Positions 46,390 to 63,991 are shown, counted from the first letter of the stretch. The stretch is DNA of 64,000 nt from a virus (IMGVR_UViG_3300045988_172457:13245-77244), one strand, 5' to 3'. The notes: a model not told the origin generated them from the letters alone. Program-made: numbers and translations.

Positions 46390-47547
46390 CTAGTTCTCCG
46401 AGCGTTCGCTGATATTCTCCCGCATCTGCAAATAAGCCCCATGCTCACGCAAGTAATCCCGCAAATACGGCATTTTGAAAGCGACTTCACCGTAACCGAC
46501 CGGCTCAATCAAATCGTTCTCAATCAGCTTGGTTCTATACACGTTGGCGAACTGTGGCGAACGGTTCAACCGACGGGCGATTTCACCTGTATTCGACACC
46601 GTATCATCCACCGACATGGCAAGTAGATAGTTCACCGCATGGGATGGCAAGCCATGCAATGCTGGGGCGTGAACCATATCCCCTAGTTTGGCTTGGGCTT
46701 TTTCGATACCCTTGACCGCGTCCTCCTCGGTCACTTGATTCACATGACCGTTGGTTTCGGACATCCGCCAAGCCCAATAGCCCACCAGCTGAATCATGAA
46801 CGGATAACCGTGAGTGGCGTTGGTCAACCGTATCAGCGTTTCCATTCCGGCTTTCTTCTCGCCGCTGAAGGATTCCTCGAACGCCTTCAATACCTTTTCC
46901 GTGGGGACAGACCCCAAATGGTATCGTTCCGCCCGTTGCAGGAAAGTGATGGCATTGTCGGACAGCACGTCGTTCACTGCGGACGGCAGTCCGGCGAAAA
47001 CGAACGCGATGTTCCGTCCTTCCCGGATGAGATGCTGCACTGCGGTAGACAGTGCTCTGATTTCGTCCATGGAACCGGACTGCACCTCATCCAATGTGAT
47101 GAGGATTCCTTGTTTGGTCTCGTTCATTTTGTCCAATCGTTTTCCGACCGCTTGGCGGAGTGTCAGGGAACGTTCCTCATTATGTTCGAGTTCGATTCTC
47201 CCTAAGCTCAGTTCAAGATTCCCGACGTCCCCTTTCAATCCTACTTTGGGCATGTCGTATGCGGATATGCGGGTGGTGTCCTTGCCGGTGAGCGCGTCCA
47301 CGAGTCTTCGGGTGAAGCCTTTGTCGGCGCTTTCGTTGTAGATTTGCCAACCTTGTTTTTTGGCGTGCTCTCCCAGTGTGTCCAGCATGACTGTTTTGCC
47401 GACTCCTCTGGCTCCTGTGAGGAACATCAGCCGTCCGGGGCTTCCCACACCGTCTTTCAGCGCATAGTCGAAGTCTTCGATGATTTCTTCTCGTCCGACG
47501 AGTATCGGTGGGATACGTCCGGCGGTTGGTTTGAATGGGTTGGTCAT
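46390..47547 (-). CDS. AAA-type ATPase with a C-terminal winged-helix domain (ORC/Cdc6-like 'archaeal ATPase' family), 385 aa
   Basis: Walker A GARGVGKT, Walker B ILITLDEVQ. Start placed at the Met with RBS AAGGAAACAGAC. The ORF-track 5' extension reads through an AT-rich promoter. Confidence 0.7.
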   Translation of the reverse strand: MTNPFKPTAGRIPPILVGREEIIEDFDYALKDGVGSPGRLMFLTGARGVGKTVMLDTLGEHAKKQGWQIYNESADKGFTRRLVDALTGKDTTRISAYDMPKVGLKGDVGNLELSLGRIELEHNEERSLTLRQAVGKRLDKMNETKQGILITLDEVQSGSMDEIRALSTAVQHLIREGRNIAFVFAGLPSAVNDVLSDNAITFLQRAERYHLGSVPTEKVLKAFEESFSGEKKAGMETLIRLTNATHGYPFMIQLVGYWAWRMSETNGHVNQVTEEDAVKGIEKAQAKLGDMVHAPALHGLPSHAVNYLLAMSVDDTVSNTGEIARRLNRSPQFANVYRTKLIENDLIEPVGYGEVAFKMPYLRDYLREHGAYLQMRENISERSEN

Positions 47548-47784
47548 GTCTGTTTCCTTGATTTTATAATAATTATAATAAGTATAATACTTTAAAAAAG
47601 CATGTACCAAGAGGTTAAGTTCGATAATGGGCGAGCTTTGTCGAGAGTAGAGGTTGACGACCTAAACGGAAGTGGTTTAAAATAGATTCTTGTTTGAGAT
47701 AAGGTCACTTTTTCTAAAAGGCATTGAGGGACGGTTCCCGTTTCGGTTTCCGTTCCTCTTTTTTGTGTTGTTTTCATACTTGAG

Positions 47785-47806
47785 GTATACTGGAATTGTT
47801 CACACA
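47785..47806 (+). promoter_or_regulatory. Repeated promoter/leader motif copy 1 (GTATACTGGAATTGTTCACACA)
   Basis: Extended -10 (TG-n-TATACT) followed by the conserved GGAATTGTTCACACA. ~30 nt upstream of the ATG at 47836. Confidence 0.55.
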
Positions 47807-47835
47807 GGAAAAGTCGAAAAACCAAGGAGCAAAAA

Positions 47836-48660
47836 ATGAGCAACATCGACAGCATCATCGAACGCATCAACAACCTCATGGCAATAGCCGAAAACGAAGC
47901 ATCCAGCGACAATGAGGCGCAAATGGCGTTCGAGCGGGCACAGAAACTCATTAACGAATATCGTATCGAAGACTGGAAACGCGACCGCACCCGCACGAAC
48001 AAGCCAATCATCGAACGTGGCGTGAACGTAAGCAAAACCACCATCTACCATCAGCAAGGCTACCTTGCGACCATCATCGCCCAAGCTAACGAATGCCGCG
48101 CCTACCTTCACGAAAGCCGGTGTGGCGGAAGGATTGAGGAACGTGCCGTCATGTTCGTAGGCGAGGAGGACGATGTGAACGCCGCAGTCCTTCTCTTCCA
48201 AAGCATCGACCTATACTGCTCAGTCCACGCCCGTACTAGCTACGCGGACATGATTGACAAGCACGCCAAAGCGTACTATGAGGACAACAAGGAATACGTC
48301 GAAACGCATTACGGACGTGAATCCTATCCGACGCTGACGGAATGCAAACAGTACATGCGTCGTGATTATCCACGCGCCAAGTTCTACTATGGTTATCGCG
48401 GTGGATTCAACGAACGTTTGAGCGAACGTTTCGAGGAGCTTCGCAAGCAGAGTCTCGCCATTCCTTCCGGTCGTGAGCTGGTGTCATGTAAGAGTCAGCG
48501 TCTGAACGAGTATTTTGACAAGCTTGAGCTGGTGTCGGGTCATGCGGCCACTGCTCGTGGTAGCAAGGATGGTTTTGCCCGTGGTGTGAGTGACGCGAAC
48601 AATGTGGGTTTGGGTTTGTCTGAAATGGGTGTTTCGTCCCACGCTTTGCTGAATGCCTGA
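47836..48660 (+). CDS. DUF2786-like protein (274 aa)
   Basis: N-terminal IERINNLMAIAENEASSDNEAQMAFERAQKLINEY matches the DUF2786 signature. Confidence 0.6.
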   Translation: MSNIDSIIERINNLMAIAENEASSDNEAQMAFERAQKLINEYRIEDWKRDRTRTNKPIIERGVNVSKTTIYHQQGYLATIIAQANECRAYLHESRCGGRIEERAVMFVGEEDDVNAAVLLFQSIDLYCSVHARTSYADMIDKHAKAYYEDNKEYVETHYGRESYPTLTECKQYMRRDYPRAKFYYGYRGGFNERLSERFEELRKQSLAIPSGRELVSCKSQRLNEYFDKLELVSGHAATARGSKDGFARGVSDANNVGLGLSEMGVSSHALLNA

Positions 48661-48667
48661 CTATGAT

Positions 48668-48689
48668 GTATACTGGAATTGTTCACACA
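48668..48689 (+). promoter_or_regulatory. Repeated promoter/leader motif copy 2 (GTATACTGGAATTGTTCACACA)
   Basis: Identical 22-mer to copy 1. Confidence 0.55.
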
Positions 48690-48712
48690 AGATATGCCGA
48701 GAAGGAGAAACC

Positions 48713-49678
48713 ATGGACAACGACGCAATCAACAGTCTTACCAAAAAGTGGACTGCCAACCTCGTTTACTGCTTCGAGGACTTCGACAACGAAACCCACT
48801 CGCAACGACTGAGCGCATACATCGACCAGAAGTCCTTAGACAAATTCAAGGAAGCCAACCTAATCGAACTGACCAAGGAACGCGACCGTTGGAAGCTTAC
48901 CAACAAGGGAATCGACCTGCTGGAAAGCATTAAGAACATCTACCGGAGTGGAAGAATATTCCCTCTCCCCTTACCGTTCCGTCACTATTACATCAACTGC
49001 AAGTTGAAGTACAACATGAAAATCGAGGACGGAAAGATATACGACGGACTGCGTGAAACCGTGTTGAAAGACCGGAGTCGTGACGTTCGCCGCAAGGTGG
49101 CCGAATATTTGGAATACAAGGGAAAACTCAACTATAAGACCGCGACCAGCCTCGCCAAGGACAAAGACCCCGAACTACGCAAGCTCGCCGCAAAGCATAC
49201 CGTTGCAAGCCTGTGCTGGGAGGAAACGGATTACGACGTTATCCGCTACATGGTGGAAAACAAGCTGGCCGATAGGCTCTGCTTCGAGCATTGGGTGAAA
49301 AGCGAAGACGAAACCATCCGCGCCCTATCGGCACCGTTGGCGGAGGAAACGGACATAGACCCGTTGTTGGACTCCCTTTCCGACGAATCCGCCATCCAAG
49401 TCTTGTTCAATAATCCGGAATGGGTCAAAGGTAAGCGTGCCGTGCGCTTGTGGCGTCGCATGGGCGGGGAAAACCGCCGTTGGATTATGTCCTTTATGTG
49501 GGATGTTCCCGATTCTCTAATTGAGGAGTCGTTAGCGGAACCTCGTAATTGGCAAATCTCTTCTCGATTGGAGGAGTATAAGAAGGCGTTGCAGACCGTG
49601 GCCCGTATGGAGCGCTTGTTTGCCAAGGGTAGTGAGATTAAACGCAAGATGCGTGCCCGTGCCGGTTTGTCCGATTGA
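48713..49678 (+). CDS. Hypothetical protein (322 aa) with HEAT/PBS-like helical repeats
   Basis: Start chosen at the Met with RBS GAAGGAGAAACC. Repetitive ...DPELRKLAAKH.../...DETIRALSAPLAEE... units. Confidence 0.55.
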   Translation: MDNDAINSLTKKWTANLVYCFEDFDNETHSQRLSAYIDQKSLDKFKEANLIELTKERDRWKLTNKGIDLLESIKNIYRSGRIFPLPLPFRHYYINCKLKYNMKIEDGKIYDGLRETVLKDRSRDVRRKVAEYLEYKGKLNYKTATSLAKDKDPELRKLAAKHTVASLCWEETDYDVIRYMVENKLADRLCFEHWVKSEDETIRALSAPLAEETDIDPLLDSLSDESAIQVLFNNPEWVKGKRAVRLWRRMGGENRRWIMSFMWDVPDSLIEESLAEPRNWQISSRLEEYKKALQTVARMERLFAKGSEIKRKMRARAGLSD

Positions 49679-49760
49679 GGTTTGATGGGGGGGGGAAGGC
49701 GGGATGCTGTTTTGGTGTCCCGCTTTTGTTTTTTGGGGTTTTGCGGTTTTTCTCAAGTGT

Positions 49761-49783
49761 GCTATAGTGGAATTGTTCACACA
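49761..49783 (+). promoter_or_regulatory. Repeated promoter/leader motif copy 3 (GCTATAGTGGAATTGTTCACACA)
   Basis: TATAGT -10 variant; the downstream element is identical. Confidence 0.5.
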
Positions 49784-49812
49784 AAGAGCGATAGGCAAAA
49801 GGAGCACATAAC

Positions 49813-50073
49813 ATGTACGCAATCCACTACATCGGCGGCGCAATCAACGTCAAGAAAATGCCCAAAAAACAAGCAGTCGAATACGCCAAACAAATCAACG
49901 ACAACGCCCTCTCAAGCACCTTCCCCGAAAGCGTGAAACTCGTTCAAAGTCCCGAAGCCCGCACCATCATGCAAAACAGACTCTTCGCAAAAGACATCTA
50001 CGCCCGCCACAGCGACGTATACAGCATGAGCATGGCTGAACTCGTCAACGCAGTCAACGAATACTGTTGCTGA
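49813..50073 (+). CDS. Hypothetical small protein (86 aa)
   Basis: ORF with RBS AAAAGGAGCAC. Confidence 0.5.
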   Translation: MYAIHYIGGAINVKKMPKKQAVEYAKQINDNALSSTFPESVKLVQSPEARTIMQNRLFAKDIYARHSDVYSMSMAELVNAVNEYCC

Positions 50074-50119
50074 AAAACAATCACCACAAACCCCAATTAC
50101 ACGAAAAAGGACAATCAGA

Positions 50120-50482
50120 ATGTACTCGAAAATCAGCGAAGACACCTATCGGAAACTCATCGACAAACTCGTCAGAATCCCCTACGTGACCGGCGCTCAC
50201 GCAACCCGAGCCATCTTCGGAGACGGAATCGAAGTCGCATTCCAACACCGTTACATGGGCAAGCAGGTCGAGTACTATCTGGTGGCCGACTCGCAACGAG
50301 ACGGCAGACGTTCCTACCGTTGGCGTGGCGGAGTATACACGGTTCCGTCCGCACACTGGACTTTCGATGACGGGGAATACACGCCCGTCGAACTGGAAGA
50401 ACATAAGCTGGAATCGTTGGATGTTGACGGACTGTATGACGCGATTGTGTCCGATTTAGACAAGGCCATGAGAGAATTGTAG
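50120..50482 (+). CDS. Hypothetical protein (120 aa)
   Basis: ORF with RBS AAAAGGACAA. Confidence 0.5.
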   Translation: MYSKISEDTYRKLIDKLVRIPYVTGAHATRAIFGDGIEVAFQHRYMGKQVEYYLVADSQRDGRRSYRWRGGVYTVPSAHWTFDDGEYTPVELEEHKLESLDVDGLYDAIVSDLDKAMREL

Positions 50483-50492
50483 GAAAACGAAA

Positions 50493-50867
50493 ATGCGATT
50501 CACCGACGGCAAGGAAAAGCTGGAAATCGAAATCCACGAAGGCCAGCATTCTTGGGATACAACGGTAGAATTCTTCGACCATTTGACGACTCCCATTCTG
50601 AATGGGACTCGTCAGGTGGGAAACGTTCGCACTCTACTGACGAACGTGTACAACAGGATTCTAGGCATGTCCGACTATCCCGCACCGGAAGCCGACACTC
50701 GGGCAATCTACACCATCGCCGACTTGGCTGGAACCATTGTCAGGGAAGGTTCTTTCACTTCGTCCAACAATCCAGCCAACACGTATTGCAGTGGTTGCGG
50801 TTGCCTTCTCAGCGAGGAGAACGAGAACCTTTGCGGTGATACCAGCTGGTGCGATAACTGCTACTGA
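50493..50867 (+). CDS. Hypothetical protein (124 aa) with a C-terminal Cys-rich zinc-ribbon-like motif
   Basis: CSGCGCLLSEENENLCGDTSWCDNCY. Confidence 0.5.
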   Translation: MRFTDGKEKLEIEIHEGQHSWDTTVEFFDHLTTPILNGTRQVGNVRTLLTNVYNRILGMSDYPAPEADTRAIYTIADLAGTIVREGSFTSSNNPANTYCSGCGCLLSEENENLCGDTSWCDNCY

Positions 50868-50934
50868 GATTGGAAGACTGCCGTTTCTATGCTTCCTTAT
50901 TGTTCTATCGGATTGTGTTTTGCGCTAATATCAT

Positions 50935-50956
50935 ATATACTGGAATTGTTCACACA
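50935..50956 (+). promoter_or_regulatory. Repeated promoter/leader motif copy 4 (ATATACTGGAATTGTTCACACA)
   Basis: Same motif. Confidence 0.55.
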
Positions 50957-50985
50957 GCAAGAAGTTGCATCCTACAAGGAGAAAA

Positions 50986-51240
50986 ATGAGCAACACCACC
51001 ACAGAAATCAACTGGCACAACACCCTCCCCCAAAACTTGGAAGGCCACAAGTGCATCGCCGTCACCAAAACCGGCGAAACCATCGAAGGCATACTGGAAT
51101 ATCGCACGGCACAACCCGACATGTATGTGAGAATCGATAGCCTCCACTTCCCCGGCGTCAAACCATGGGTTATTGTCAACCAATGCGAATCCGGCAACGA
51201 AATGGGCGAAGAATTCCAGTCCGTGAAAGTGTTCGCCTGA
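50986..51240 (+). CDS. Hypothetical small protein (84 aa)
   Basis: Start at the Met with RBS AAGGAGAAAA. Confidence 0.5.
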   Translation: MSNTTTEINWHNTLPQNLEGHKCIAVTKTGETIEGILEYRTAQPDMYVRIDSLHFPGVKPWVIVNQCESGNEMGEEFQSVKVFA

Positions 51241-51251
51241 AAGGTTCACGA

Positions 51252-51416
51252 ATGAGTAACCACGACTGGGTAGCAACCGACAGTCCCAATAAAAACAACA
51301 CTCACAAGAACAACCGTTCCACTCATAACGGATGGGACGCCGGTAGCGCTTGGAACCCGCAATCCACGAAACGAAACGAATTCGGCATACGCAATACCGA
51401 CTGGAGCAATGACTAG
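51252..51416 (+). CDS. Hypothetical small protein (54 aa), N/W-rich
   Basis: Internal Met of ORF 51165-51416. Weak RBS. Confidence 0.3.
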   Translation: MSNHDWVATDSPNKNNTHKNNRSTHNGWDAGSAWNPQSTKRNEFGIRNTDWSND

Positions 51417-51455
51417 CTCCCACGTCAAAAAAACGTTAGACCAAAAGGATAAAAA

Positions 51456-51785
51456 ATGAACAGCGACTACTATGAGTATCTGACCACCTCAGCCAAAAAC
51501 GACCCTGAACTGAACGAGCACGACAAAGAGACCGTATTGGCTTTCCTGAAACGACTCGACGCCAACCCCGACAAGTATGCGGTAGCCCCAAGAACAATCG
51601 CATACTTGAATGAAGAATCTTTGGAATACGCTGACATTACAACCGAAACCCTTAAGAAGCTCGACATGAGCGCTACGCAACTGTTGGACGAATGGTGGGA
51701 AAACGTTTGGGGTAGCGCTACTATTGAGGACGATTGCCTTGAGGGACTAAACGAAGTTCTAGAACTTCACGGAGTCAGTAAATGA
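51456..51785 (+). CDS. Hypothetical acidic protein (109 aa)
   Basis: ORF with RBS AAAAGGATAAAAA. Confidence 0.5.
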   Translation: MNSDYYEYLTTSAKNDPELNEHDKETVLAFLKRLDANPDKYAVAPRTIAYLNEESLEYADITTETLKKLDMSATQLLDEWWENVWGSATIEDDCLEGLNEVLELHGVSK

Positions 51786-51851
51786 TACCAGAATGCCCGT
51801 GGAAAACGACTTCCACGGGTATTCTCGTCTCAATTTTTGGAAGGAGCGCGA

Positions 51852-52067
51852 ATGCCCCATTACTTGTTGGACGCGGCTAATGACGCGACTGAACTCCCAT
51901 CCGCAGACTTGGATAACATCCAGTCGGTTCTGCGTACCACGCCTACTCTTGATTCAGAAGCGACCGTGTTGGCTTGCGAGATTCTGAATGCTTGGGACGA
52001 GGATTGTAGGATTCTTCGCCGCCGTCCGAGGCTGGTGTTGTTGAATGTTGAGGAGCCGGAATTCTAA
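51852..52067 (+). CDS. Hypothetical small protein (71 aa)
   Basis: ATG with RBS AAGGAG at spacing 5. Confidence 0.45.
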   Translation: MPHYLLDAANDATELPSADLDNIQSVLRTTPTLDSEATVLACEILNAWDEDCRILRRRPRLVLLNVEEPEF

Positions 52068-52107
52068 GTGTGGGAAGGTGGTTTTTCGTTCTTTGCATTA
52101 CCCCTGT

Positions 52108-52132
52108 TGTGTTAGAGTGAGATAGCCCACAC
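52108..52132 (+). promoter_or_regulatory. Diverged member of the promoter/leader family (TTGTGTTAGAGTGAGATAGCCCACACC)
   Basis: Shares the GTGTTAnAnTG...CACAC framework. Upstream of 52149. Confidence 0.35.
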
Positions 52133-52148
52133 CAAAAAAGGAAAACCA

Positions 52149-52394
52149 ATGGCCTTAAAAGAACTTCCCTATCAAGACGGAATCAACTGGAAAGAATTCG
52201 AAGGCAAGTCCGCGATATTCAAATGGAACGGCAAACCCATGGCCGGAACCCTCTACTTGGACGGTTTCAGCAATCTCGCAGTTCGTGAACTGTCCGGTTA
52301 CATGCCGGTCTTATATATTTGGCCGGATGATACGAGTCATGTCAACGTCGAGCGTGTGACGGATTTTCATGTGTTCGAGTTCGTTGAGGATTAG
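52149..52394 (+). CDS. Hypothetical small protein (81 aa)
   Basis: ORF with RBS AAAAGGAAAACC. Confidence 0.5.
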   Translation: MALKELPYQDGINWKEFEGKSAIFKWNGKPMAGTLYLDGFSNLAVRELSGYMPVLYIWPDDTSHVNVERVTDFHVFEFVED

Positions 52395-52824
52395 TGTAGT
52401 TCGGGACGCTGGCACTGCGGCTTCTATTCCCATTCCGGGGACAATCCGAACGTATTATCCCGGCTTCGATATTTGGTTCAACCGCACGGTTCTCCCCTCA
52501 TTGGGGAAAGGCCGTGCGATTCTTTTAGCCCGCATAAACGGTGAGTTGGCGGGGTTTTGCGTTCTCAAGAGAAATCCGTCTGAACGGAAGATTTGCACTT
52601 TGTATGTCTACGAGGGTTTTCGGAGTCGAGGGGTTGGTTCCACGCTGGTCGAATATGCATTGAAATCGCTGGATGAACGGTTCCCTCTGGTGACAGTGCC
52701 GGAAGAGCTGTTGCCGATGTATGAGGGTTTCTTCCGTCGTTTTGATTTTCGTCTGTCCGGCTCTCGTGTGGGTTTGTATCGGGTTGGGAAGAGGGAGTTC
52801 TTTTTTAACGGGACGCTGGCTTAG
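52369..52824 (+). CDS. GNAT-family N-acetyltransferase (start uncertain)
   Basis: Acetyl-CoA-binding motif FRSRGVGSTLVEYAL and a GNAT-like C-terminal fold. The annotated start overlaps the upstream gene. Confidence 0.55.
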   Translation: MCSSSLRISVVRDAGTAASIPIPGTIRTYYPGFDIWFNRTVLPSLGKGRAILLARINGELAGFCVLKRNPSERKICTLYVYEGFRSRGVGSTLVEYALKSLDERFPLVTVPEELLPMYEGFFRRFDFRLSGSRVGLYRVGKREFFFNGTLA

Positions 52825-52855
52825 GTTTGCGTGTTGCGTTTTTCTACCCCCTTGT

Positions 52856-52877
52856 GTTATAGTGGGATTGTTCACAA
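52856..52877 (+). promoter_or_regulatory. Repeated promoter/leader motif copy (GTTATAGTGGGATTGTTCACAA)
   Basis: Same family. Confidence 0.5.
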
Positions 52878-52909
52878 CAAAAACAAAGACAACCAAAAAG
52901 GAGAACGCA

Positions 52910-53281
52910 TTGAATCAAGCAACTAAATTCGGCAAACGAATCCTCTTCGATGACCACCCAACTCGCGCAGTATTCGACACCAAGGAACTGCCAACAGACG
53001 ACTCCCATGCGCTCTACCGCGTATACCTGCGCTCTTGGCAACGGCATTCCTGCCGACCGGGAACCGAGAATACACCCATGTTCGACGTGATATGCCCGAC
53101 AAGATGGTGCCGTTGGATTACCCACATCAGCATTCTGAACTATTTGGACGGCATAAGCTGGCTGGCTTGGCCAGTGGAAGGTGGCGTCAGCTGGCGGCAT
53201 AGGACAATCGACCCCTATTCCGTCCACTATTCCACCGATACCCATATTCCGGTAATCGACCTGCGCAAAAGCGAAGAATAG
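52910..53281 (+). CDS. Hypothetical protein (123 aa) with a TTG start
   Basis: TTG preceded by RBS GGAGAACGCA. The protein is W/C/H-containing. Confidence 0.4.
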   Translation: MNQATKFGKRILFDDHPTRAVFDTKELPTDDSHALYRVYLRSWQRHSCRPGTENTPMFDVICPTRWCRWITHISILNYLDGISWLAWPVEGGVSWRHRTIDPYSVHYSTDTHIPVIDLRKSEE

Positions 53282-53289
53282 GAGAGAAC

Positions 53290-53685: not shown

Positions 53686-53711
53686 AAAAAACAGAAAGGA
53701 AAAACAAAAAA

Positions 53712-53981: not shown

Positions 53982-53984
53982 GGC

Positions 53985-54007
53985 GTTATACTAGAAACGT
54001 CCACACA
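53985..54007 (+). promoter_or_regulatory. Repeated promoter/leader motif copy (GTTATACTAGAAACGTCCACACA)
   Basis: Same family. 26 nt upstream of the exonuclease gene's ATG. Confidence 0.5.
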
Positions 54008-54032
54008 TTCACTTACCCGAGGAGACCACACC

Positions 54033-55984: not shown

Positions 55985-56010
55985 AAACCATTCCAAAAAA
56001 GGAGAACACC

Positions 56011-56310: not shown

Positions 56311-56313
56311 CCC

Positions 56314-56694: not shown

Positions 56695-56769
56695 CCTGTC
56701 TTATCACGAAAACCCCAAAGCCAAGCAGAAACAACCTCAACCTTCCCCTATGAAAAAAGGAGTGGAGAA

Positions 56770-57180
56770 ATGACCGGTTTCATCGCCGTCGATATGCTGT
56801 CCGAAATCAGCAAGGCCCTCGAATACGAAAACGATTGGACTCAACTGAAGGACGGCGTGCTGGAATGCCGACTGCGAGACCAGTATGACGGCGAGCACAC
56901 CGGCCTCGCCCGCGTCACTATAAACAAGGCGGGTAAGGTGTCCGTTATGGCATGGTCGGACAATCCGTACGAATACAAGACCATGCCCGAGCCGGATTGG
57001 ACGCATGAATACGATTCGACCGACCCGGAAGCCATCGCGGAGGACATTTGGAACCGTTGCCCATACTGCGGGCGGGAATCCGACAAGTGCGTGTGCGAAC
57101 GTTGCGCGGGCTGCGGTGTTCTTTTGGACTGGGACAACAGGGCGGACGGCGATTATGGCTACTGCGAATACTGCCATTAG
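56770..57180 (+). CDS. Hypothetical protein (136 aa) with a C-terminal multi-Cys zinc-ribbon motif
   Basis: CPYCGRESDKCVCERCAGCGVLLDW...YCEYCH. Confidence 0.5.
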   Translation: MTGFIAVDMLSEISKALEYENDWTQLKDGVLECRLRDQYDGEHTGLARVTINKAGKVSVMAWSDNPYEYKTMPEPDWTHEYDSTDPEAIAEDIWNRCPYCGRESDKCVCERCAGCGVLLDWDNRADGDYGYCEYCH

Positions 57181-57198
57181 AAAAAAGGAGAAACGGAA

Positions 57199-57849
57199 AT
57201 GTTGAGAATCGAGAAGACGCTGAAAGAACTGCGTGACCTTCAAAACACCTTGCATGGACTCGGAATCGAAATGTCCATCAATGATGCGGATGTCGAAACG
57301 AAAAGCGATTACGAGGATGCGGCGATGACCATTGACATATACGAGCCGTGTCGTTGTTTCGCGTGGGTCGGCATGGACGGCGTGGTTCACATGAGATGGA
57401 ATTCGTATCCCGATGCCTTCACGTGGTTTCGGATGAACCTGCTTTTGGACCTCGCTCGCGGCTACATGCTGAAAGCGGACAATATCACGAAATCGTGGAC
57501 GCACCTTCGCAGGAATCTCGACGGACAAGCCGACGAAATGCCCCTCCCCGACAAACTGGCCGGAAGGAAAGCGGAATACGAGGATGCAGCCAACCGGCTA
57601 CGCGACCTTATCAAAGCTGACCCGATTGCAATGGATTTATCCCCTTACGAATGCGAACGCCTTGAAAGGTTCCTCCGCGACCCGCAGAAGGAGCGTCTTC
57701 TGGAGTACGACCCGGACGACCCGTTTTATCGGAATATGTTCAACAGGGGATTGATTGACCGCGAGGGACTGACTGAACTGGGACGAAAGGCTATGGAACA
57801 TTACATTTCCGTGCGTCAACCTCGGATACGGGTTGGTTTGTCTTCTTAA
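57199..57849 (+). CDS. Hypothetical protein (216 aa)
   Basis: RBS AAAAAGGAGAAACGGAA before the ATG. Confidence 0.55.
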   Translation: MLRIEKTLKELRDLQNTLHGLGIEMSINDADVETKSDYEDAAMTIDIYEPCRCFAWVGMDGVVHMRWNSYPDAFTWFRMNLLLDLARGYMLKADNITKSWTHLRRNLDGQADEMPLPDKLAGRKAEYEDAANRLRDLIKADPIAMDLSPYECERLERFLRDPQKERLLEYDPDDPFYRNMFNRGLIDREGLTELGRKAMEHYISVRQPRIRVGLSS

Positions 57850-57857
57850 CCAACTGT

Positions 57858-57880
57858 GTTATACTGGGGGTGTTCACATA
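57858..57880 (+). promoter_or_regulatory. Repeated promoter/leader motif copy (GTTATACTGGGGGTGTTCACATA)
   Basis: Near-identical to the 55962 copy. Confidence 0.5.
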
Positions 57881-57925
57881 AAAAAACAGTCGAAAAGACC
57901 ACCATCCCGATTCGGAGTAACAACA

Positions 57926-58552
57926 ATGCATAGCCTATACAAGACCGCAGGTAAATGCACTCTCAACCGAAACAAAGTGCGTTACCCCAACCAAAAGGAA
58001 GCCCAACTCGCCTTGGCCGTCATCAAAGGACGAGGCAATCCGAAACACACTGAGAAACGCGCATACCATTGCCCCGTCTGCCACGGATGGCATCTGACTA
58101 GCGCCGAAACCGTTAATGATACAGTCCTGTCCGGGAGTGTGCTCCAACACACCAATCCAGACGCGTTCGACACAGGAATGAAAGCGTTCCTCTCTGGTTC
58201 CAAACGCGGCAAATATTCCGCAAGCAAAGCCAGCCTGACCCGACGTGTCCGACATTTGCTCCACTTGTTCGCGGCTAACGATATTCCGAAGGACTCTTGG
58301 GACAATCCATGGTTGTGGGCAACTCTTAGATTCCAAGTCATGTGGAGGGGCGGAGACCAGAAGGCCGAACAGCTTCTATCCACTTCGAAGAAAACGGTCA
58401 AAATGGCGGGCGACATGCTCACCGAAGACAAGGAGCCGTTCCTTCGCGTGGCTGAAACCCGGAAGGAAGCACAGAAATTACAGAATACACCACTACCGGC
58501 ATGGTTGGCCGTCGCACTGATGTCCGACAAGGGAAAGGAGCAGAAAGTTTGA
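57926..58552 (+). CDS. Hypothetical protein (208 aa) with a CPVCHGWH zinc-finger-like motif
   Basis: Start at the Met downstream of the promoter copy. HCPVCHGWH. Confidence 0.5.
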   Translation: MHSLYKTAGKCTLNRNKVRYPNQKEAQLALAVIKGRGNPKHTEKRAYHCPVCHGWHLTSAETVNDTVLSGSVLQHTNPDAFDTGMKAFLSGSKRGKYSASKASLTRRVRHLLHLFAANDIPKDSWDNPWLWATLRFQVMWRGGDQKAEQLLSTSKKTVKMAGDMLTEDKEPFLRVAETRKEAQKLQNTPLPAWLAVALMSDKGKEQKV

Positions 58553-58728
58553 ACGAAAACGAACTGAAAGAAAGGGCCGTCCACTCATTGCTCCAATCGA
58601 AGCTTGGTAAAGTCGCCCCGGCGGAAGCGTTCGTCATCGGATGGCGGAAAGGCTGGGACGAGGCTATCGACATGGCTTTGGAAATCCTTCGCAATGAACT
58701 CGATAAAGATGGCGAGGACGAATCGTGA
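58549..58728 (+). CDS. Possible small ORF (59 aa, TTG start)
   Basis: TTG preceded by AAGGAGCAGAAAG. Coupled to flanking genes. Confidence 0.3.
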   Translation: MNENELKERAVHSLLQSKLGKVAPAEAFVIGWRKGWDEAIDMALEILRNELDKDGEDES

Positions 58729-58997
58729 TTTGTTCCAAATACACATGCATGTTGTGCGGAAGAGTCACCGACTTGGACACCGGCTACAAGTACATCATCT
58801 CCGTCGTCCAAACAGGCGGTCACGGTCGATGCTCATACGCTCGAACATTGGTCATCTGCCAGCATTGCATGCGCACGCATAAAACCGTCATGACCTTGCA
58901 ACGCAAATCCTTGAATGAGGAAAACGTTCTTGAATTCCACAGGCCACCGAAAACCCGAAAAACGTCCACCAAGAAAACCAGCGGGAAGAAAGGCTGA
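58725..58997 (+). CDS. Small zinc-ribbon protein (90 aa)
   Basis: GTG start overlapping the upstream stop. CMLCGRV...CQHCMRTH. Confidence 0.45.
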   Translation: MICSKYTCMLCGRVTDLDTGYKYIISVVQTGGHGRCSYARTLVICQHCMRTHKTVMTLQRKSLNEENVLEFHRPPKTRKTSTKKTSGKKG

Positions 58998-59005
58998 ACC
59001 GTTTT

Positions 59006-59893
59006 ATGGACACTAGTGAAAAGCAGATTATCGGAGAGAACGCCAAATACGTTTCCGACACCATCCCGCAGGAAACCAAGGATGGGCTTCGCGCCCATTT
59101 GAAGCCCGGATACGCCATGCCGGACGGCACCCATTATGCGACAGGCATGGATTACACGGAACTTATGCGCAATCTGCGCAACATCCAATACTGTGGCTGT
59201 CCGCTCTGCCACGACACGCAGTCCGGATTGGAAACCATTCTCGCGACCAGCGGCATGACCGTCCGTGAGCTTGCCGAGGAAATCGCATGCGACGAATACG
59301 ATTCGTATTCTGTCTCTGAAATCCGCGACCTTGACCCGGAACAGTTGAAGCCAGTGGACGAGATTATCGAGGATATCAACCGTTGGAGCCACGACCAGCA
59401 TGCGCTCGAACACGCTTCCTTCGGCACTGTCAGGCTTCTGTCCGTCTACTTGAACGTCAGCCTCGACCAGATGTACGACGAATTGGATTATCAGACGCTC
59501 ATCTACACGCCATGGGAGGAGGACTCCCACATTCACGGCTATGTGACGGTCATCCGTTACAAGGACGGAAAGTATGAGGTGGATGTTCCGGAATGCCGAT
59601 ACCAGTGCGACGAAATGTATTGGAACGCGCGTCGCAAGATGGAAGAATCCAACACTCCCATCACGTTGGATGTTCTGCGTAGCGAACCGTGGAGCAAGGA
59701 GCATCGCACTCCCGTGGCATTGCCGGAACAGTATCGTGGCAAACAGTATCATCTGGGAGACCCTTACAGCCTGTCAACTTTGCTGGACAAGCTGGCCTCA
59801 CATGATGTTCCGGTGGACGAGAGAGTTCTTATCGCCCTCGAACTGGAGGAACAGTTCCCGTTGCGGTTGACTCCACTGTCCGAAAAGGACTGA
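59006..59893 (+). CDS. Hypothetical protein (295 aa)
   Basis: Long ORF containing a CGCPLCHD motif. Confidence 0.55.
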   Translation: MDTSEKQIIGENAKYVSDTIPQETKDGLRAHLKPGYAMPDGTHYATGMDYTELMRNLRNIQYCGCPLCHDTQSGLETILATSGMTVRELAEEIACDEYDSYSVSEIRDLDPEQLKPVDEIIEDINRWSHDQHALEHASFGTVRLLSVYLNVSLDQMYDELDYQTLIYTPWEEDSHIHGYVTVIRYKDGKYEVDVPECRYQCDEMYWNARRKMEESNTPITLDVLRSEPWSKEHRTPVALPEQYRGKQYHLGDPYSLSTLLDKLASHDVPVDERVLIALELEEQFPLRLTPLSEKD

Positions 59894-59953
59894 CATTTTC
59901 TAGGGAGAAGCCGATAGCAGCCTCTCCCTCTCTTAGTCAAGAAAGGAAACCCG

Positions 59954-61009
59954 ATGGTTAGAAAAATGGTGAGCGTTCAAAAGATTGAGGGAGTGTATCC
60001 CATTGAGAACGCAGACCGTATCGAGAAGATTCGCATTGGCGGTTGGATTGTCGTAGTAGGCAAGGACATGGGATTAAAGCCCGGCGACCATGTGGCCTAT
60101 TACGAAATCGACTCCATGCTGCCCGCCGACGACCCACGCTATACGGACTTGCAGAAGCGTGGTCAGCGTACCGTTCCCGTGTCCAACACGATTACCGGCG
60201 AAGAGAAGGAAATCACCGGACACGTGCTACGTACCGCGCGACTGCGCGGAGTGTACAGTCAAGGACTAGTCATGCCGCTTTCAACGATTGGCGTACCGGA
60301 GGACACTCCCATCGGCACTGATATCACCTTACAGGCGGACGTATGGAAGTATGAGGAACTGCCACCATTGAAAGGCGGTGACATGGTTGGTGCTTTCAAC
60401 GCGCCATGCTCCAAGTCCGACGCCACGCGAGTGCAGAATCTCACCGCGTATTGGGATGAAATCAGGCGGATTGCGTGGACTCCGACCGTGAAGGTGGACG
60501 GTACCAGCACCACAATCTACCGTGATATGGATGATACGGTTCACGTCTACTCTCGCAATTGGGAGTTGAAGCCGGAATGCACGAACATGCAGGTGGCGGT
60601 GAAAACCGGATTGGTTGACGCGTTGGAGAAAGGCATGGTCTGCCAGTTCGAGCTGTGCGGCCCAAGTGTCAACGGCAACAGGTTGAAGCTGGCGTCCTAT
60701 CGTCCATTCGTGTTCGCCGTATGGCGTGACAATATGAAACTCGACCGTAGGGATTGGCCGAAAGCCATGCTTGACAACGCCGTCCCACTGTTAGACGAGA
60801 CCGAGTGGAAGCCGACCGGCGATGTGATGGACATGATTGCCAAAGTGGACGGTCTGCGCGGCAACGTGACCCGCGACTTGTTGGACGAAGGAATCGTCTG
60901 GCATGCGAAAGCGGGCGAACGGTTGAGCGACGACCTGTACAACGAGCTTGGCAGCAACCGTTGCTTTAAAATCATCAACAACAAGTATCTGACTAAGCAT
61001 GGTCTTTGA
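59954..61009 (+). CDS. ATP-dependent RNA ligase family protein (351 aa)
   Basis: N-terminal OB-like domain (KIEGVYPIENADRIEKIRIGGWIVVVGKD...GDHVAYYEIDSMLP). Nucleotidyltransferase motif I KVDGTS (the adenylated lysine). Resembles the DraRnl/NgrRnl-type Rnl family. Confidence 0.6.
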   Translation: MVRKMVSVQKIEGVYPIENADRIEKIRIGGWIVVVGKDMGLKPGDHVAYYEIDSMLPADDPRYTDLQKRGQRTVPVSNTITGEEKEITGHVLRTARLRGVYSQGLVMPLSTIGVPEDTPIGTDITLQADVWKYEELPPLKGGDMVGAFNAPCSKSDATRVQNLTAYWDEIRRIAWTPTVKVDGTSTTIYRDMDDTVHVYSRNWELKPECTNMQVAVKTGLVDALEKGMVCQFELCGPSVNGNRLKLASYRPFVFAVWRDNMKLDRRDWPKAMLDNAVPLLDETEWKPTGDVMDMIAKVDGLRGNVTRDLLDEGIVWHAKAGERLSDDLYNELGSNRCFKIINNKYLTKHGL

Positions 61010-61079
61010 TGTCGAATAGGGGGCTGGGCTTACTTTTGTGTTCAGACCCCTGTTTCGTCTTTCATATCATTCCTGTCTT

Positions 61080-61102
61080 GTTATACTGGGGATGTTTACA
61101 AA
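61080..61102 (+). promoter_or_regulatory. Repeated promoter/leader motif copy (GTTATACTGGGGATGTTTACAAA)
   Basis: Same family. Located inside the 3' end of the RNA ligase gene region. Confidence 0.4.
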
Positions 61103-61108
61103 CGCCGG

Positions 61109-61306
61109 ATGAAACAAAGAAGTGGCGAATTGAATATCTCCAACATGTCGGAAGAGACGATAGAAGAAAACCTACCCGACCTGTCCCCGCATTTAGAGGA
61201 TGGGTTCAGTCTGAAACAGCTTGAAACACTCCACGATTATGCCGTGGAAGCTTTCAAGGCCGGAATCGAATACGCCAACAACAATCGAAAAGGAGCCGTA
61301 AATTGA
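61109..61306 (+). CDS. Hypothetical small protein (65 aa)
   Basis: ORF with a weak RBS. Sits just downstream of the promoter copy. Confidence 0.35.
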   Translation: MKQRSGELNISNMSEETIEENLPDLSPHLEDGFSLKQLETLHDYAVEAFKAGIEYANNNRKGAVN

Positions 61307-62301
61307 CCGATAGGAAAACGTGGGTCATCTCCATTCCACCAGTCAAATGTCCCGATGACATGACCGGCATCCCTAACTATTACATTCAAATATGGGAAAA
61401 GTACGTCGGCAAGGTCAAGCCGGAAGGTGGAGACCGTGAGGATTGGATTGAAACCTGTTCCCGACTTTACTGGGGTGTCCGCAATCTAGGTGAGGACGCC
61501 ATAGTCCGAGTGCATGGGAAAACCGACATCGACCCGAAACAGCTAATCGGATTACCGCACTTCGGACAAGTGTTGGACATGCCGCCAATCGACCAGTATG
61601 CAGACCCATCTCATGCCGACCGTTACGCCATCAATTCCAACGTGCGTATGCTCATGCATCGGAAGGCGAAACTCAGTTCCATCTACGAGGATGACATCAA
61701 ACATGCGTTCGCTTCTCTTATTAGGGACGGTGTTTCGTCGTTCTTCATCAAATTCATGAACCAAGCCAAATGGCTACCGAATTTGAAAATCTCCGGAACT
61801 AATCTTGACGAGCTTGAACAGCAGGTGCAGGAGTGGGGAGGTTGGGCGTTTGTTCATGCGGATGATGACCCGAATGCTCTGCTTATTCAGGAGAATGTCG
61901 ATGTCCAATACGAGTATCGCATGTTCATGGTCGGCAACCAGCCTGTCTGCGGCGCTGGCAATATCGGATTGAAAACACCAATCGACAACATGCATACGAG
62001 ATTTGACCCTCAAATGCAGAAGATTCGTGACGACACCACCGTTAAGAACGTTGAACTCAGACCGGATTTGGCGGAACGATACCGTGAGTTCGCCACGCGA
62101 GCCGGACGAATGTTCTCACACTGCGGTTACGGCGCGTACACGCTCGACCTGTGTCTTATCAAGGGTGAAGTGTCAATCGTGGAATTGAACGGCATGATGA
62201 ACGCCGGACTGTTCGCATTGAACATGAACGATTTGACGAGCGCGTTGCGAGTCAATTGGAAACAGTGTCTTCCCCCGGTTCTACTCGAAACGGCTATCTA
62301 A
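61303..62301 (+). CDS. ATP-grasp fold enzyme (332 aa)
   Basis: C-terminal ...YTLDLCLIKGEVSIVELNGMMNAG fits the ATP-grasp Mg/ATP-binding E-x-N motif. TTG start with RBS AAAGGAG. Confidence 0.5.
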   Translation: MTDRKTWVISIPPVKCPDDMTGIPNYYIQIWEKYVGKVKPEGGDREDWIETCSRLYWGVRNLGEDAIVRVHGKTDIDPKQLIGLPHFGQVLDMPPIDQYADPSHADRYAINSNVRMLMHRKAKLSSIYEDDIKHAFASLIRDGVSSFFIKFMNQAKWLPNLKISGTNLDELEQQVQEWGGWAFVHADDDPNALLIQENVDVQYEYRMFMVGNQPVCGAGNIGLKTPIDNMHTRFDPQMQKIRDDTTVKNVELRPDLAERYREFATRAGRMFSHCGYGAYTLDLCLIKGEVSIVELNGMMNAGLFALNMNDLTSALRVNWKQCLPPVLLETAI

Positions 62302-62317
62302 AAAGAGAGGAATAATA

Positions 62318-62818
62318 TTGGAAAACGGAGAAAAAGAATGCCCCTCATGTGCCAGACGTGAGGTGTCGTTATCGGATTATCCAGATTGGAGTCAATGCAA
62401 CAGTTCAGCACTCCGCGATTGCGTCAATCGGCTCAACAATTACGATGCTGGAATCGTATTCGGAATGCATTTCGGAAACCCGGACTTCGTACTGGAAGGC
62501 GACCCTAATCCAGCAAAAAAGAACATTCTGTTCTTCAAAGCGGATAAAAAGTACGTTTATCTGGAAGTTGTCACTATGGAAGATGGGAACGTGCCGAAAG
62601 AGCATATTCCAATAGTCCGAATGTGCAAACCTTGCATGGCTCTTATGGGGGAATATTTTTGGAGCGAATATCTTCCGAAAGAGTTTTGGGAAGGATACGA
62701 GCAAAATGTGTTGCACACTCTGAAAAGACTGGTGGGCGACCCCAGTGTCGAATCAAACGCCGACCTGATTAAGTATGCGAGAGAAATCGTCCACGGCGAC
62801 ATGCTCATCGACTGGTAG
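62318..62818 (+). CDS. Hypothetical protein (166 aa) with CPSC...C motifs
   Basis: TTG start after RBS AAAAGAGAGG. Internal Cys pairs CPSCARREV and MCKPCMALM. Confidence 0.45.
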   Translation: MENGEKECPSCARREVSLSDYPDWSQCNSSALRDCVNRLNNYDAGIVFGMHFGNPDFVLEGDPNPAKKNILFFKADKKYVYLEVVTMEDGNVPKEHIPIVRMCKPCMALMGEYFWSEYLPKEFWEGYEQNVLHTLKRLVGDPSVESNADLIKYAREIVHGDMLIDW

Positions 62819-63246
62819 TGTCTGTTGGCTTGTTTTTAAATAGAGAGGGAGTATTTTTGCGACCACAATCAGAAGACACCGTGGAACTCACCACCGTCAT
62901 CGACCCCGCGTCCATCACACGCATGGCGTCCAGCCGTCCGGACAATAGGGAAACCACCATGTATGGCAGACACGGCAAGCATGACAGCAAGCCGCCAAAA
63001 ATCAAAAAGTCACGGGCTAAAACGGATAAAACCAAACATCCCATAGAACAGGTCATGCCATTCGTCATGCTCGCCGTAAGCATTGTTTTCTTGGCGGGGA
63101 TGGTTCCGATTCTCTGGCTTATGCCGGTTTCGGAACCAGAGGATATGATTGTCCGTCCTATTCTGACCGGCCTGATTGGTGTGGTGGCGGTTTCCGCCAA
63201 CATTCCGGCTTGGGTGTATTTCTCCCGTTGGCGTCGAGATTCATAG
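62818..63246 (+). CDS. Membrane protein (142 aa, 2 TM), start uncertain
   Basis: Helices VMPFVMLAVSIVFLAGMVPILWLM and ILTGLIGVVAVSANIPAWVYF. Confidence 0.45.
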   Translation: MSVGLFLNREGVFLRPQSEDTVELTTVIDPASITRMASSRPDNRETTMYGRHGKHDSKPPKIKKSRAKTDKTKHPIEQVMPFVMLAVSIVFLAGMVPILWLMPVSEPEDMIVRPILTGLIGVVAVSANIPAWVYFSRWRRDS

Positions 63247-63272
63247 AAAAGCTAAATCCGAAACATTTCCTT

Positions 63273-63295
63273 GTTATACTGGAAACAACCACATT
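63273..63295 (+). promoter_or_regulatory. Repeated promoter/leader motif copy (GTTATACTGGAAACAACCACATT)
   Basis: Same family. Confidence 0.45.
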
Positions 63296-63317
63296 CAAGC
63301 AAAAGCAAGGAAAACAC

Positions 63318-63587
63318 ATGCCTAGAACCACACTAGCCGATGTCGCATCCGACTACGTGCGCAAACACCAGCACGAACGGCAATGCCGTCAACTCGACTC
63401 CGATAGTCGCGTCACGCTCACGGTAATCCAAAACCAGTGGGCGAAACTCGCCGGACAGGAACCCATGACCATTTTCGACGCGCCGGAGGTCGTAATTAGA
63501 AGCATCGAAAACACGCAACGCGGACACGAACTGTTCGACCGCACAAAAGAAACAAACGGGGTCGTCTACTACGGCCTGAAAAATTGA
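63318..63587 (+). CDS. Hypothetical small protein (90 aa)
   Basis: RBS AAGCAAGGAAAACAC before the ATG. Confidence 0.5.
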   Translation: MPRTTLADVASDYVRKHQHERQCRQLDSDSRVTLTVIQNQWAKLAGQEPMTIFDAPEVVIRSIENTQRGHELFDRTKETNGVVYYGLKN

Positions 63588-63604
63588 AAGGAAACAAAAA
63601 CATA

Positions 63605-63991
63605 ATGTCGGAACTCGCAGAGGACACCAGAAGGGTAACGCTTCTACTGGGAGACAATCCGGAAGGAAATCAATGGCATACATGCTTGGACTTGTCCCAC
63701 AACGAGTATGCCATCCAAAAACTGCGTGAGACCGGAAGACTGGAAGCAGGGAAGGCCACTTCGCTGACCGTCGAACAGTTGCAGAACCTTCTCACCAAGG
63801 CGCAGAAGGACGCCCACGGGTTCCAAGACACTCCCACCGGCAAATGCTTGCGAGGCAGTGAGCCTGAACGGAGACTACAGGCATACAAGTTCGCTGAAAA
63901 CCTCAACCGTGCCCTCTGTGAAGGCTCTCCCGTGTATTGTTCGGAGTCTGAGCCGAGGCTGGACTTATCTTTCCCGAGTTTCAAGGACTGA
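63605..63991 (+). CDS. Hypothetical protein (128 aa)
   Basis: ATG with RBS GAAAGGAAAC. Confidence 0.5.
   Translation: MSELAEDTRRVTLLLGDNPEGNQWHTCLDLSHNEYAIQKLRETGRLEAGKATSLTVEQLQNLLTKAQKDAHGFQDTPTGKCLRGSEPERRLQAYKFAENLNRALCEGSPVYCSESEPRLDLSFPSFKD

Follow-up and report, generated by a model that had tools for sequence, protein, structure and literature searches.

The 64,000-nucleotide stretch IMGVR_UViG_3300045988_172457:13245-77244 (the window, numbered here from its first letter) is part of a large plasmid that encodes Rep, partition, and DnaB genes. Between 47.8 kb and its right end at 64 kb, the window carries an array of ~33 open reading frames (ORFs) that all point in one direction. On balance, we read this region as the largest variable cassette array of a plasmid-specific promoter regulon, carried by a divergent Bifidobacterium-type conjugative megaplasmid of the pMP7017 family from the human gut. 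In window-equivalent coordinates, the array comprises ~11 co-directional transcription units from 47.8 to ~69-70 kb. Each follows the same plan: an extended -10 promoter with a conserved downstream box, a short leader, a ribosome-binding site (RBS), and one to six small genes. A thin conserved core, consisting of genes for a DUF2786 protein, a HEAT-like protein, a DEDDh exonuclease, an 89-amino-acid (aa) protein, and a 179-aa/105-aa pair, is interleaved with lineage-specific cassettes.

A repeated promoter motif shared with pMP7017

The sequence TATACTGGAATTGTTCACAC occurs seven times in the window when up to three mismatches are allowed, and a relaxed form of the pattern finds 11 sites, nine on the plus strand in the array and two on the minus strand elsewhere; no occurrence of either pattern is expected by chance. 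The nine array copies share the promoter core TGT-TATACT-GGAATTGTTCACAC and are listed in Table 1. Most are preceded by TG(T), which forms an extended -10 element, and the -35 element is weak (TTGnGT). Every copy lies over the -10 position, and an RBS and start codon follow 15 to 50 nucleotides (nt) later, the arrangement of a pMP7017-family regulon promoter.

A motif of this kind has been described for pMP7017, where a 34-bp sequence overlapping the -10 element is present in 19 copies that are predicted to drive ~56 genes (Dineen et al. 2024, PMC10832533). Its published form is AWAYATGY-TATACT-GAATATGTCCACATAAAAWA, with the core …ATGY-TATACT-GAATATGTCCACATAAAA…; it is absent from bifidobacterial chromosomes and was read as the transcription factor site of a plasmid-specific regulon (PMC10832533). 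Among the genes listed for that regulon are p0108, which is of the DnaQ type, and the genes around it, as well as an orphan methyltransferase and single-stranded DNA-binding protein (SSB) pair and CRISPR-Cas genes (PMC10832533, Table S1). We located copies of the motif before the homologous genes in pMP7017 and in three metagenomic relatives of the window (contigs L016, L021, and L023), one of which (L023) has 11 copies in 10 kb. Judged by its sequence, the window motif is the published pMP7017 regulon element. Promoter mapping and RNA-seq data are from pMP7017 only, and the window promoters are predictions.

The two minus-strand copies, at 4227-4246 and 26854-26873, front minus-strand arrays of small genes. 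The occurrence of the motif at several loci and on both strands indicates that the regulon is plasmid-wide and runs in both orientations.

ORF and RBS analysis placed all credible genes between 47.8 and 64 kb on the plus strand, and genes called independently on three metagenome contigs of the same or nearly the same sequence (L002, L008, and L009) agree. The strictly one-directional run of small ORFs reported in the initial annotation, made from the sequence alone, therefore holds for 47836-63991. That annotation had also given each ORF a strong promoter of its own, which we did not find: nine motif copies serve ~33 ORFs, one for every one to six genes. A generic sigma-70 scan returned 14 sites where 14.1 were expected and thus showed no enrichment, but such a scan cannot score a family-specific extended -10 motif. 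Many array genes overlap or abut their neighbors, so they look operonic. The motif sites led us to correct several gene starts, with 48713, 50986, 51852, and 52910 being the better choices, and five first-pass ORFs are probably miscalled (50889-51140, 51165-51416, 51793-51987, the 5' part of 52721-53281, and 61006-61224). The right flank present on three contigs (L007, L008, and L016) extends the array ~5-7 kb beyond the window.

Table 1. Features of the array, its left neighbor, and selected backbone genes (positions in the window)
Feature	Position	Strand	Remarks
IS200/IS605 TnpA/TnpB element	178-1766		insertion sequence (IS) elements are frequent in and around the arrays
RepA_C-type Rep protein	7730-8599		sole Rep gene in the window; 33% identity to B. 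longum RepA
ParA	9194-9931	-	backbone gene
DnaB helicase	29937-31277		backbone gene
AAA_16 P-loop ATPase	46390-47610	-	Pfam AAA_16, E = 2e-12; divergent left neighbor of the array, outside it
Promoter copy P1	47783-47805	+	motif site at 47786; followed by RBS and ATG at 47836
DUF2786 + DUF7168 protein	47836-48660	+	first array gene; Pfam E = 3e-9 (DUF2786) and 1e-8 (DUF7168)
Promoter copy P2	48669-48688	+	also an exact cassette junction
HEAT-repeat-like protein, 321 aa	48713-49678	+	array core gene; weak Pfam HEAT_2 and weak winged-helix HTH_45 matches
Intrinsic-terminator-like hairpin with T run	49695-49727	+
Promoter copy P3	49763-49782	+
Three small ORFs (86, 120, and 124 aa)	49813-50867	+	third has a C-terminal zinc ribbon; RBS present; no Pfam or PHROG match
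Promoter copy P4	50936-50955	+
84-aa ORF	50986-51240	+	behind P4; followed by 109-aa ORF 51456-51785
Small ORFs	51852-52067, 52149-52394	+	precede the GNAT gene; identical calls on L002
GNAT acetyltransferase	52369-52824	+	Pfam Acetyltransf_1/7/10
Promoter copy P5	52858-52877	+
ORFs behind P5	52910-53281, 53290-53685, 53712-53981	+
Promoter copy P6	53987-54006	+
DEDDh (DnaQ/PolC-exo type) 3'-5' exonuclease	54033-54617	+	array core gene; PF00929 RNase_T, E = 1.8e-33
ORFs after the exonuclease gene	54618-54875, 54872-55441, 55387-55590, 55682-55942	+	54872 has an N-terminal zinc ribbon
Terminator-like hairpins	55625-55658, 55929-55954
Promoter copy P7	55964-55983	+
Four-ORF cassette	56011-57849	+	56011 (99 aa), 56314 (126 aa), 56770 (136 aa, acidic, zinc ribbons), 57199 (216 aa)
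Promoter copy P8	57860-57879	+
ORFs	57926-59893	+	57926 (208 aa, zinc ribbon, phrog_3424), 58549 (59 aa), 58725 (90 aa, zinc ribbon), 59006 (295 aa, acidic)
Rnl5-type RNA ligase	59954-61009	+	N-terminal OB domain PF21189 (PHA02142) and nucleotidyltransferase PF09414 (RNA_ligase); phrog_968
Promoter copy P9	61082-61101	+	most degenerate copy
Probable R2K-clade ATP-grasp enzyme	61303-62301	+	R2K_3 and R2K_2 matches below the Pfam cutoff
Last window ORFs	62318-63991	+	62318 (166 aa, zinc ribbon), 62857 (129 aa), 63318 (89 aa), 63605 (128 aa)

A divergent relative of pMP7017

The backbone of the plasmid was compared with characterized megaplasmids. The window between 3.4 and 31.3 kb shows inverted synteny with 159-180 kb of NZ_CP065396.1, a 198-kb Bifidobacterium longum plasmid that is a pMP7017-family conjugative megaplasmid (tblastn; 50-60% amino acid identity). 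The VirB4-like protein of the lineage is 63-67% identical to those of all six Bifidobacterium megaplasmids in PLSDB, pMP7017 included. Synteny and homology of the backbone, covering the Par, DnaB, VirB4-like, and FtsK-like proteins and a conserved ATPase cluster, place the window within the pMP7017 family. RepA of pMP7017 is not needed for replication and yet is highly conserved (PMC8313286), and its gene is divergent from the FtsK-like transfer genes there.

At the nucleotide level, a total of ~514 bp of the region matches PLSDB plasmids, and megablast against 50,697 phage records gave no phage match to it. A scan of GTDB species-representative genomes with one backbone protein, an 886-aa ATPase, returned no relative. 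Identical or near-identical pieces are found on many human-associated metagenome contigs, some of them 116-207 kb long. The cluster of the VirB4-like protein holds 959 member sequences in public metagenomes, where contigs of the lineage measure 92-207 kb. The G+C content of the window is 0.53, and values for the lineage in this comparison (0.51-0.53) are lower than those of the characterized relatives (0.55-0.59). We assign the window to a divergent, uncultured lineage of the pMP7017 family that is without a PLSDB representative. No tRNA gene was found in the window by a tRNA search, and no Rfam family matched anywhere along it. The window ORFs that were scanned, several large ones being without any match, gave no hit to phage structural, terminase, or integrase families.

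Position of the array beside the transfer genes

Beyond the window, the array continues with a DUF3310 gene and the conserved 179-aa/105-aa pair, which are followed by genes for two repeat proteins and a TnpB insertion. Next on the array strand come an 886-aa AAA_10 VirB4-like ATPase, a 256-aa protein, and a multidomain peptidoglycan hydrolase with lysozyme, glucosaminidase, and CHAP domains (contigs L007 and L016). After two minus-strand genes there follow, again on the array strand, the FtsK-like coupling protein (FtsK/SpoIIIE, 1130 aa) and further ATPases. The same succession of array and transfer genes is present on a 202-kb contig and in pMP7017. Both pMP7017 and the B. longum plasmid encode an ortholog of the VirB4-like protein, annotated as "ATP-binding protein." The B. 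longum gene (NZ_CP065396.1 39181-43500) encodes 1439 aa through an intein-like Hom_end/LAGLIDADG homing-endonuclease insert, and the form in the window lineage and in pMP7017 is uninterrupted (~885 aa).

In pMP7017, a 5.5-kb co-directional array at 79.2-84.7 kb (B7017_p0103-p0108, NZ_KM406416.1) includes a 3'-5' exonuclease gene and extends up to the gene for the VirB4-like protein. Homologs of three window genes are found in this array, in unchanged order. The HEAT-like protein is 23% identical (E = 2e-7) to the product of its first gene, the exonuclease is 56% identical to that encoded at 82026-82622, 2.2 kb upstream of the VirB4-like gene, and the 89-aa gene at 63318-63587 is conserved in both the pMP7017 and B. 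longum plasmids. Motif, position, and orientation agree as well, and most genes of both arrays are of no assigned function. The same-order homologs and the matching layout indicate that the region is an expanded version of a conserved regulon array lying close to the type IV secretion system (T4SS) genes. The window region is thus an enlarged instance of a regulon already described for pMP7017.

The enlargement is considerable. The window array is ~4 times longer (~22 kb versus 5.5 kb), backbone identity is just 50-67%, and most window cassettes have no homolog in the characterized plasmids. The window array also unites the DUF2786 gene at the head, the RNA ligase set, and the 136-aa gene, which have separate locations in pMP7017 and in B. 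longum plasmids. In the characterized plasmids the 136-aa gene lies near a metallophosphoesterase gene.

Turnover of promoter-bounded cassettes

Comparison with related contigs revealed extensive gain and loss of array genes. One contig with 90-96% DNA identity to the window (L002) is without the four genes at 55.8-57.9 kb, another (L016) has other genes at 62.3-63.3 kb, and in two more (L021 and L022) gene order is kept and many genes differ. The most informative relative, L023, is 97-99.6% identical to the window and carries a 6.5-kb insert of nine small genes, a TnpB gene, and six motif copies. On its left side, this insert directly follows the stop codon of the DUF2786 gene. On its right side, the junction coincides exactly with the start of the motif at 48669, and from that base the window aligns to L023 17321 onward at 99.6%. 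The same contig has an extra 104-aa gene between duplicated 76-nt copies of the promoter-leader.

The 136-aa product of ORF 56770-57180 is 96% identical to that of a B. longum plasmid gene (97% over ~514 bp of DNA), and the two backbones are 50-60% identical. Being far more alike than the backbones, the two copies point to an exchange between plasmids, which suggests that this single cassette gene was transferred recently. A further gene in common is ORF 53290, with 60% identity to a gene of the B. longum plasmid.

A few junctions fall at the promoter-leader, from which we infer that this repeat is the recombination substrate for cassette gain and loss. Integron cassette arrays likewise acquire and lose short cassettes at a recurrent boundary sequence. 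They differ in that no integrase or attC-type sites were seen here, and each window cassette has its own promoter. That the promoter-leader itself forms the boundary suggests recombination of a homologous and not a site-specific kind. Copies of TnpB/IS200-IS605 elements were observed on L007, L016, and L023, one between the array and the VirB4-like gene and one inside the L023 insert; such elements may add to the rearrangements.

The database matches of the array ORFs characterize them as lineage-restricted, with no housekeeping genes among them. About 24 of the 33 have no Pfam or PHROG match. The possibility that they are conserved chromosomal housekeeping genes, which the initial annotation had named as fatal to its reading, was checked with two ORFs: for ORF 59006, 5.8 billion proteins yielded only 7 related clusters, and for ORF 56770, 1.84 billion representatives yielded only 18.

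Enzymes and other products of the array

Several of the array products could be assigned to enzyme families. The RNA ligase matches the Naegleria Rnl5 ligase (PDB 5COT) over its full length (residues 2-316, E = 3.9e-35), with the OB and nucleotidyltransferase domains of the Rnl5 type (NgrRnl/DraRnl) both present. It is 62% identical to an RNA ligase of the B. longum plasmid. The exonuclease contains a full-length RNase_T domain (158 of 164 profile positions) and matches PolC-exo and DnaQ chains in the PDB with E values of 1e-22 to 1e-11. The product of ORF 61303-62301 is probably an R2K-clade ATP-grasp enzyme. Its R2K_3 and R2K_2 matches score 22.8 and 21.3 bits against Pfam cutoffs of 26.3 and 26.2, a precomputed annotation of an ortholog reads "R2K_3 (faint)," and its C terminus has the ...LDL...VELN... 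motif typical of ATP-grasp enzymes. A PDB sequence search returned no match for this ORF, and a single-sequence structure model was unusable (predicted local distance difference test score of 32). The ligase, exonuclease, probable ATP-grasp enzyme, and GNAT acetyltransferase point to nucleic acid end processing and to modification of proteins or small molecules.

The domain assignments of the initial annotation mostly survived this analysis. Its DUF2786 protein at 47836, GNAT acetyltransferase at 52369, and DnaQ-like exonuclease at 54033 are borne out by the matches given above and in Table 1, and its multiple zinc-ribbon proteins correspond to at least six ORFs with zinc-ribbon-like CxxC pairs (50493, 54872, 56770, 57926, 58725, and 62318). 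Of its pair of RNA ligase and ATP-grasp enzyme, the ligase was upheld and the partner is weaker than stated. The ORC/Cdc6-like ATPase at 46390 could not be maintained. That protein gave generic AAA_16/AAA_22 matches only and none to the AAA+ or C-terminal winged-helix domains of ORC/Cdc6, its sole PDB match is a 55-residue stretch of the DnaA P-loop (E = 0.004), and its gene is on the minus strand. It is absent from two relatives (L021 and L022), in which the array begins right after the sortase gene. PADLOC, applied to the ATPase, the neighboring reverse transcriptase, and the first array genes, returned reverse transcriptase matches only.

The fold of the DUF2786/DUF7168 protein shows just a KH-like resemblance without the GXXG loop, and this is a lead only. 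A Lar-type antirestriction domain was considered for ORF 54872 because of its N-terminal CPxC...WN pattern and was rejected, as no Pfam match was found even at E ≤ 5. ORF 62857 ends in a hydrophobic stretch that is membrane spanning in appearance.

Possible functions of the array

In the reading that we favor, the repeated promoter-leader would have two roles: it would be the substrate for cassette exchange by recombination, and a plasmid factor bound across the -10/+1 region would co-regulate the units through it. The products would act on nucleic acids and host functions in the plasmid's favor. The Rnl5-type ligase may seal RNA nicks and the exonuclease may trim 3' ends, the ATP-grasp and GNAT enzymes may modify proteins or small molecules, and the small zinc-ribbon and acidic proteins may act as binders. 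These products would most likely matter at establishment in a new host and may include counterdefense functions.

Several observations weigh against parts of this reading. About 24 of the 33 products have no detectable relatives of known function, so that the roles named above are tentative. The proposed recombination at the promoter-leader is drawn from a few junctions, and one boundary of the L002 indel (window 55774) lies inside a gene and off the motif. Near the RNA ligase, no kinase or phosphatase that could heal RNA ends was seen. In addition, the pMP7017 motif is found on highly transcribed genes in established, mid-log-phase cells (PMC10832533), which leaves a simple model of repression until entry unsupported.

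A bolder form of the proposal, which we put forward tentatively and consider rather unlikely, is that the array and its sister arrays make up an establishment regulon of an abundant, uncultured megaplasmid lineage of the Bifidobacterium type. Dozens of lineage-restricted small proteins would be new inhibitors of host defenses, for example of restriction-modification or type I-E CRISPR. Identical promoters would switch them on jointly when the plasmid enters a new cell, and they would be swapped as promoter-bounded cassettes by promoter-leader recombination. The arrays would then be a plasmid counterpart of phage antidefense hotspots, independent of a single-stranded leading region. Apart from pMP7017-type megaplasmids, no large conjugative plasmids are known from bifidobacteria, key gut commensals that are hard to manipulate genetically owing to their defense systems. 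Any cassettes that do neutralize restriction or CRISPR would be of use as tools in bifidobacterial genetics, and the idea of antidefense islands would extend to Actinobacteria. Promoter-bounded cassettes are concrete units by which candidate genes can be listed for many variants, and the value of the present analysis lies in such a list and in the establishment-regulon hypothesis.

The initial annotation took the region for a candidate leading-region island. In such a model, the array would enter the recipient first in single-stranded form and be expressed at once to supply new antirestriction, anti-CRISPR, and SOS-type inhibitors. We think this unlikely. Its layout component stands: the array is on a conjugative-type plasmid, adjoins and is co-directional with the T4SS genes, turns over rapidly, and encodes lineage-restricted products, many of them small, acidic, or with zinc ribbons. 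In the F plasmid, the leading region, oriT, and the tra operon follow one another in this order, and the order here would be F-like if oriT lay between the array and the T4SS genes. The DUF2786 gene of pMP7017 heads an array with two orphan adenine methyltransferase genes directly downstream, and the orphan methyltransferase and SSB pair of the published regulon also speaks for this reading. However, no relaxase or oriT could be recognized in the window, its flanks, or the annotated relatives. No relaxase emerged when large backbone ORFs from the window and from the B. longum plasmid were searched against Pfam, NCBIfam, and PDB, and MOB-suite types the annotated relatives as "non-mobilizable." A conserved minus-strand protein of ~330 aa between the hydrolase and FtsK genes was considered as a relaxase candidate and rejected, since it looks like a membrane or surface protein with a hydrophobic N terminus and a Trp-rich remainder. 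Among the array ORFs there was no Pfam, PHROG, or NCBIfam match to ArdA, KlcA, Acr, PsiB, SSB, or an orphan methyltransferase, so no known antidefense gene is present; the annotation itself had seen no ArdA, SSB, PsiB, or relaxase in the window, and no such family matched among the ORFs scanned.

Four noncoding stretches folded as single-stranded DNA gave z scores of -0.13 to -1.66, none indicating significant structure, and there was no Rfam match. We know of no model of Frpo/ssi-type promoters for Actinobacteria. The gene style is also plasmid-wide (window 4246 and 26873, both minus strand, and several pMP7017 loci), so that it cannot by itself mark a leading region, and with arrays of the same motif on both strands and at several loci, no more than a subset of them could be leading. 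In the B. longum plasmid, the ssb and orphan methyltransferase pair is tens of kilobases away from the T4SS genes, and the FtsK-like translocases of the family make single-stranded transfer itself an assumption. The leading-region islands described by Samuel et al. (2024, PMC11541004) resemble the array in their unidirectional small ORFs, rapid turnover, uncharacterized families, and adjoining transfer genes. The array differs in that no oriT or relaxase anchor, no ArdA, KlcA, Acr, PsiB, SSB, or methyltransferase match, and no Frpo/ssi-like structure was found for it; ordinary double-stranded DNA promoters are repeated instead, and the same style recurs on both strands elsewhere on the plasmid. 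The marker families DUF2786, RNA ligase, and DUF3310 are typical of phages and absent from the supplementary tables of that study (PMC11541004). The leading-region, antidefense reading fits the layout, but none of the diagnostic features tested supports it.

The phage character of these families raises the question of whether the array is a captured remnant or module of early genes from a temperate phage or phage-plasmid. Early arrays of actinobacteriophages consist of small, lineage-restricted ORFs with a DnaQ-like exonuclease, an RNA ligase, DUF2786, and DUF3310, and one regulatory sequence is repeated many times in them. The window array has a similar mix of ORFs, and its repeated regulatory motif recalls phage early promoters. 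Three of its families (DUF2786, RNA ligase, and exonuclease) are represented among the PHROGs, many phage proteins are matched by the DUF2786 model, and a DUF3310 gene lies just past the window end. We nevertheless judge this origin very improbable, because the array is linked to plasmid Rep/Par and T4SS genes and not to a phage structural or lysis module, shows no structural, terminase, integrase, or phage DNA match in the searches described above, consists for the most part (~24 of 33) of ORFs without PHROG matches, and is driven by a motif common to the backbone arrays of the plasmid family.

An improbable but less remote alternative is that the array is mainly an RNA/DNA maintenance module, in which the ligase, exonuclease, and ATP-grasp enzyme would repair or modify nucleic acids of the plasmid or host and the translation apparatus, for example by resealing RNAs that nucleases of the host or of competitors have cut, with the small ORFs as accessories. 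All three enzymes are present, the last of them probably, and such a module would complement the tRNA array and transfer-messenger RNA (tmRNA) reported for pMP7017 relatives; tRNAs and a tmRNA are expressed by pMP7017 (PMC10832533). Genes for tRNAs are described from the repB region of pMP7017, and the ligase array of the B. longum plasmid starts just after a ~7-kb stretch free of coding sequences next to repA. However, just three or four of the ~33 genes fit this role, the enzymes are in different transcription units, and neither end-healing enzymes nor a tRNA gene accompany them in the window.

Other features of the window

The conserved backbone cluster at 10549-21136 (minus strand) encodes a 1343-aa protein, two small proteins, the 886-aa ATPase, 158-aa and 398-aa proteins, and a 404-aa ParA/CobQ-like ATPase. 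The B. longum plasmid shares this cluster at 48-62% identity, and a gene run in pMP7017 looks similar by layout only. Beyond the ParA-like P-loop, no Pfam or NCBIfam assignment was obtained for the cluster. The 886-aa protein encoded at 15616 was considered as the counterpart of the 886-aa VirB4-like protein of L007 and rejected, the two being unrelated despite their equal length.

A homolog of DUF1524/GmrSD_C-type nucleases is encoded at 4515-5540 (minus strand) and is a possible defense gene against modified DNA. A gene for an SPFH/Band 7 protein lies downstream of the DnaB gene (31329-32726, plus strand). The sortase-dependent pilus or adhesin cluster at 32907-41245 includes a pilin backbone protein (GramPos_pilinBB/SpaA), a class C-type sortase (34737-35642), and a 1867-aa RCC1-repeat/SdrD_B surface protein; comparable clusters are found in pMP7017 and the B. 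longum plasmid. Just downstream of this giant adhesin gene is a complete diversity-generating retroelement (41128-44397). Its variable repeat (42022-42189) is the 3' end of a DUF6273 gene (41128-42189), and its template repeat (42820-42987) is 83% identical to the variable repeat and rich in AAC codons. Nearly all mismatches between the repeats pair an A in the template with any base in the variable copy. The reverse transcriptase is encoded at 43168-44397, and a 171-aa ORF (42262-42777) lies in between.

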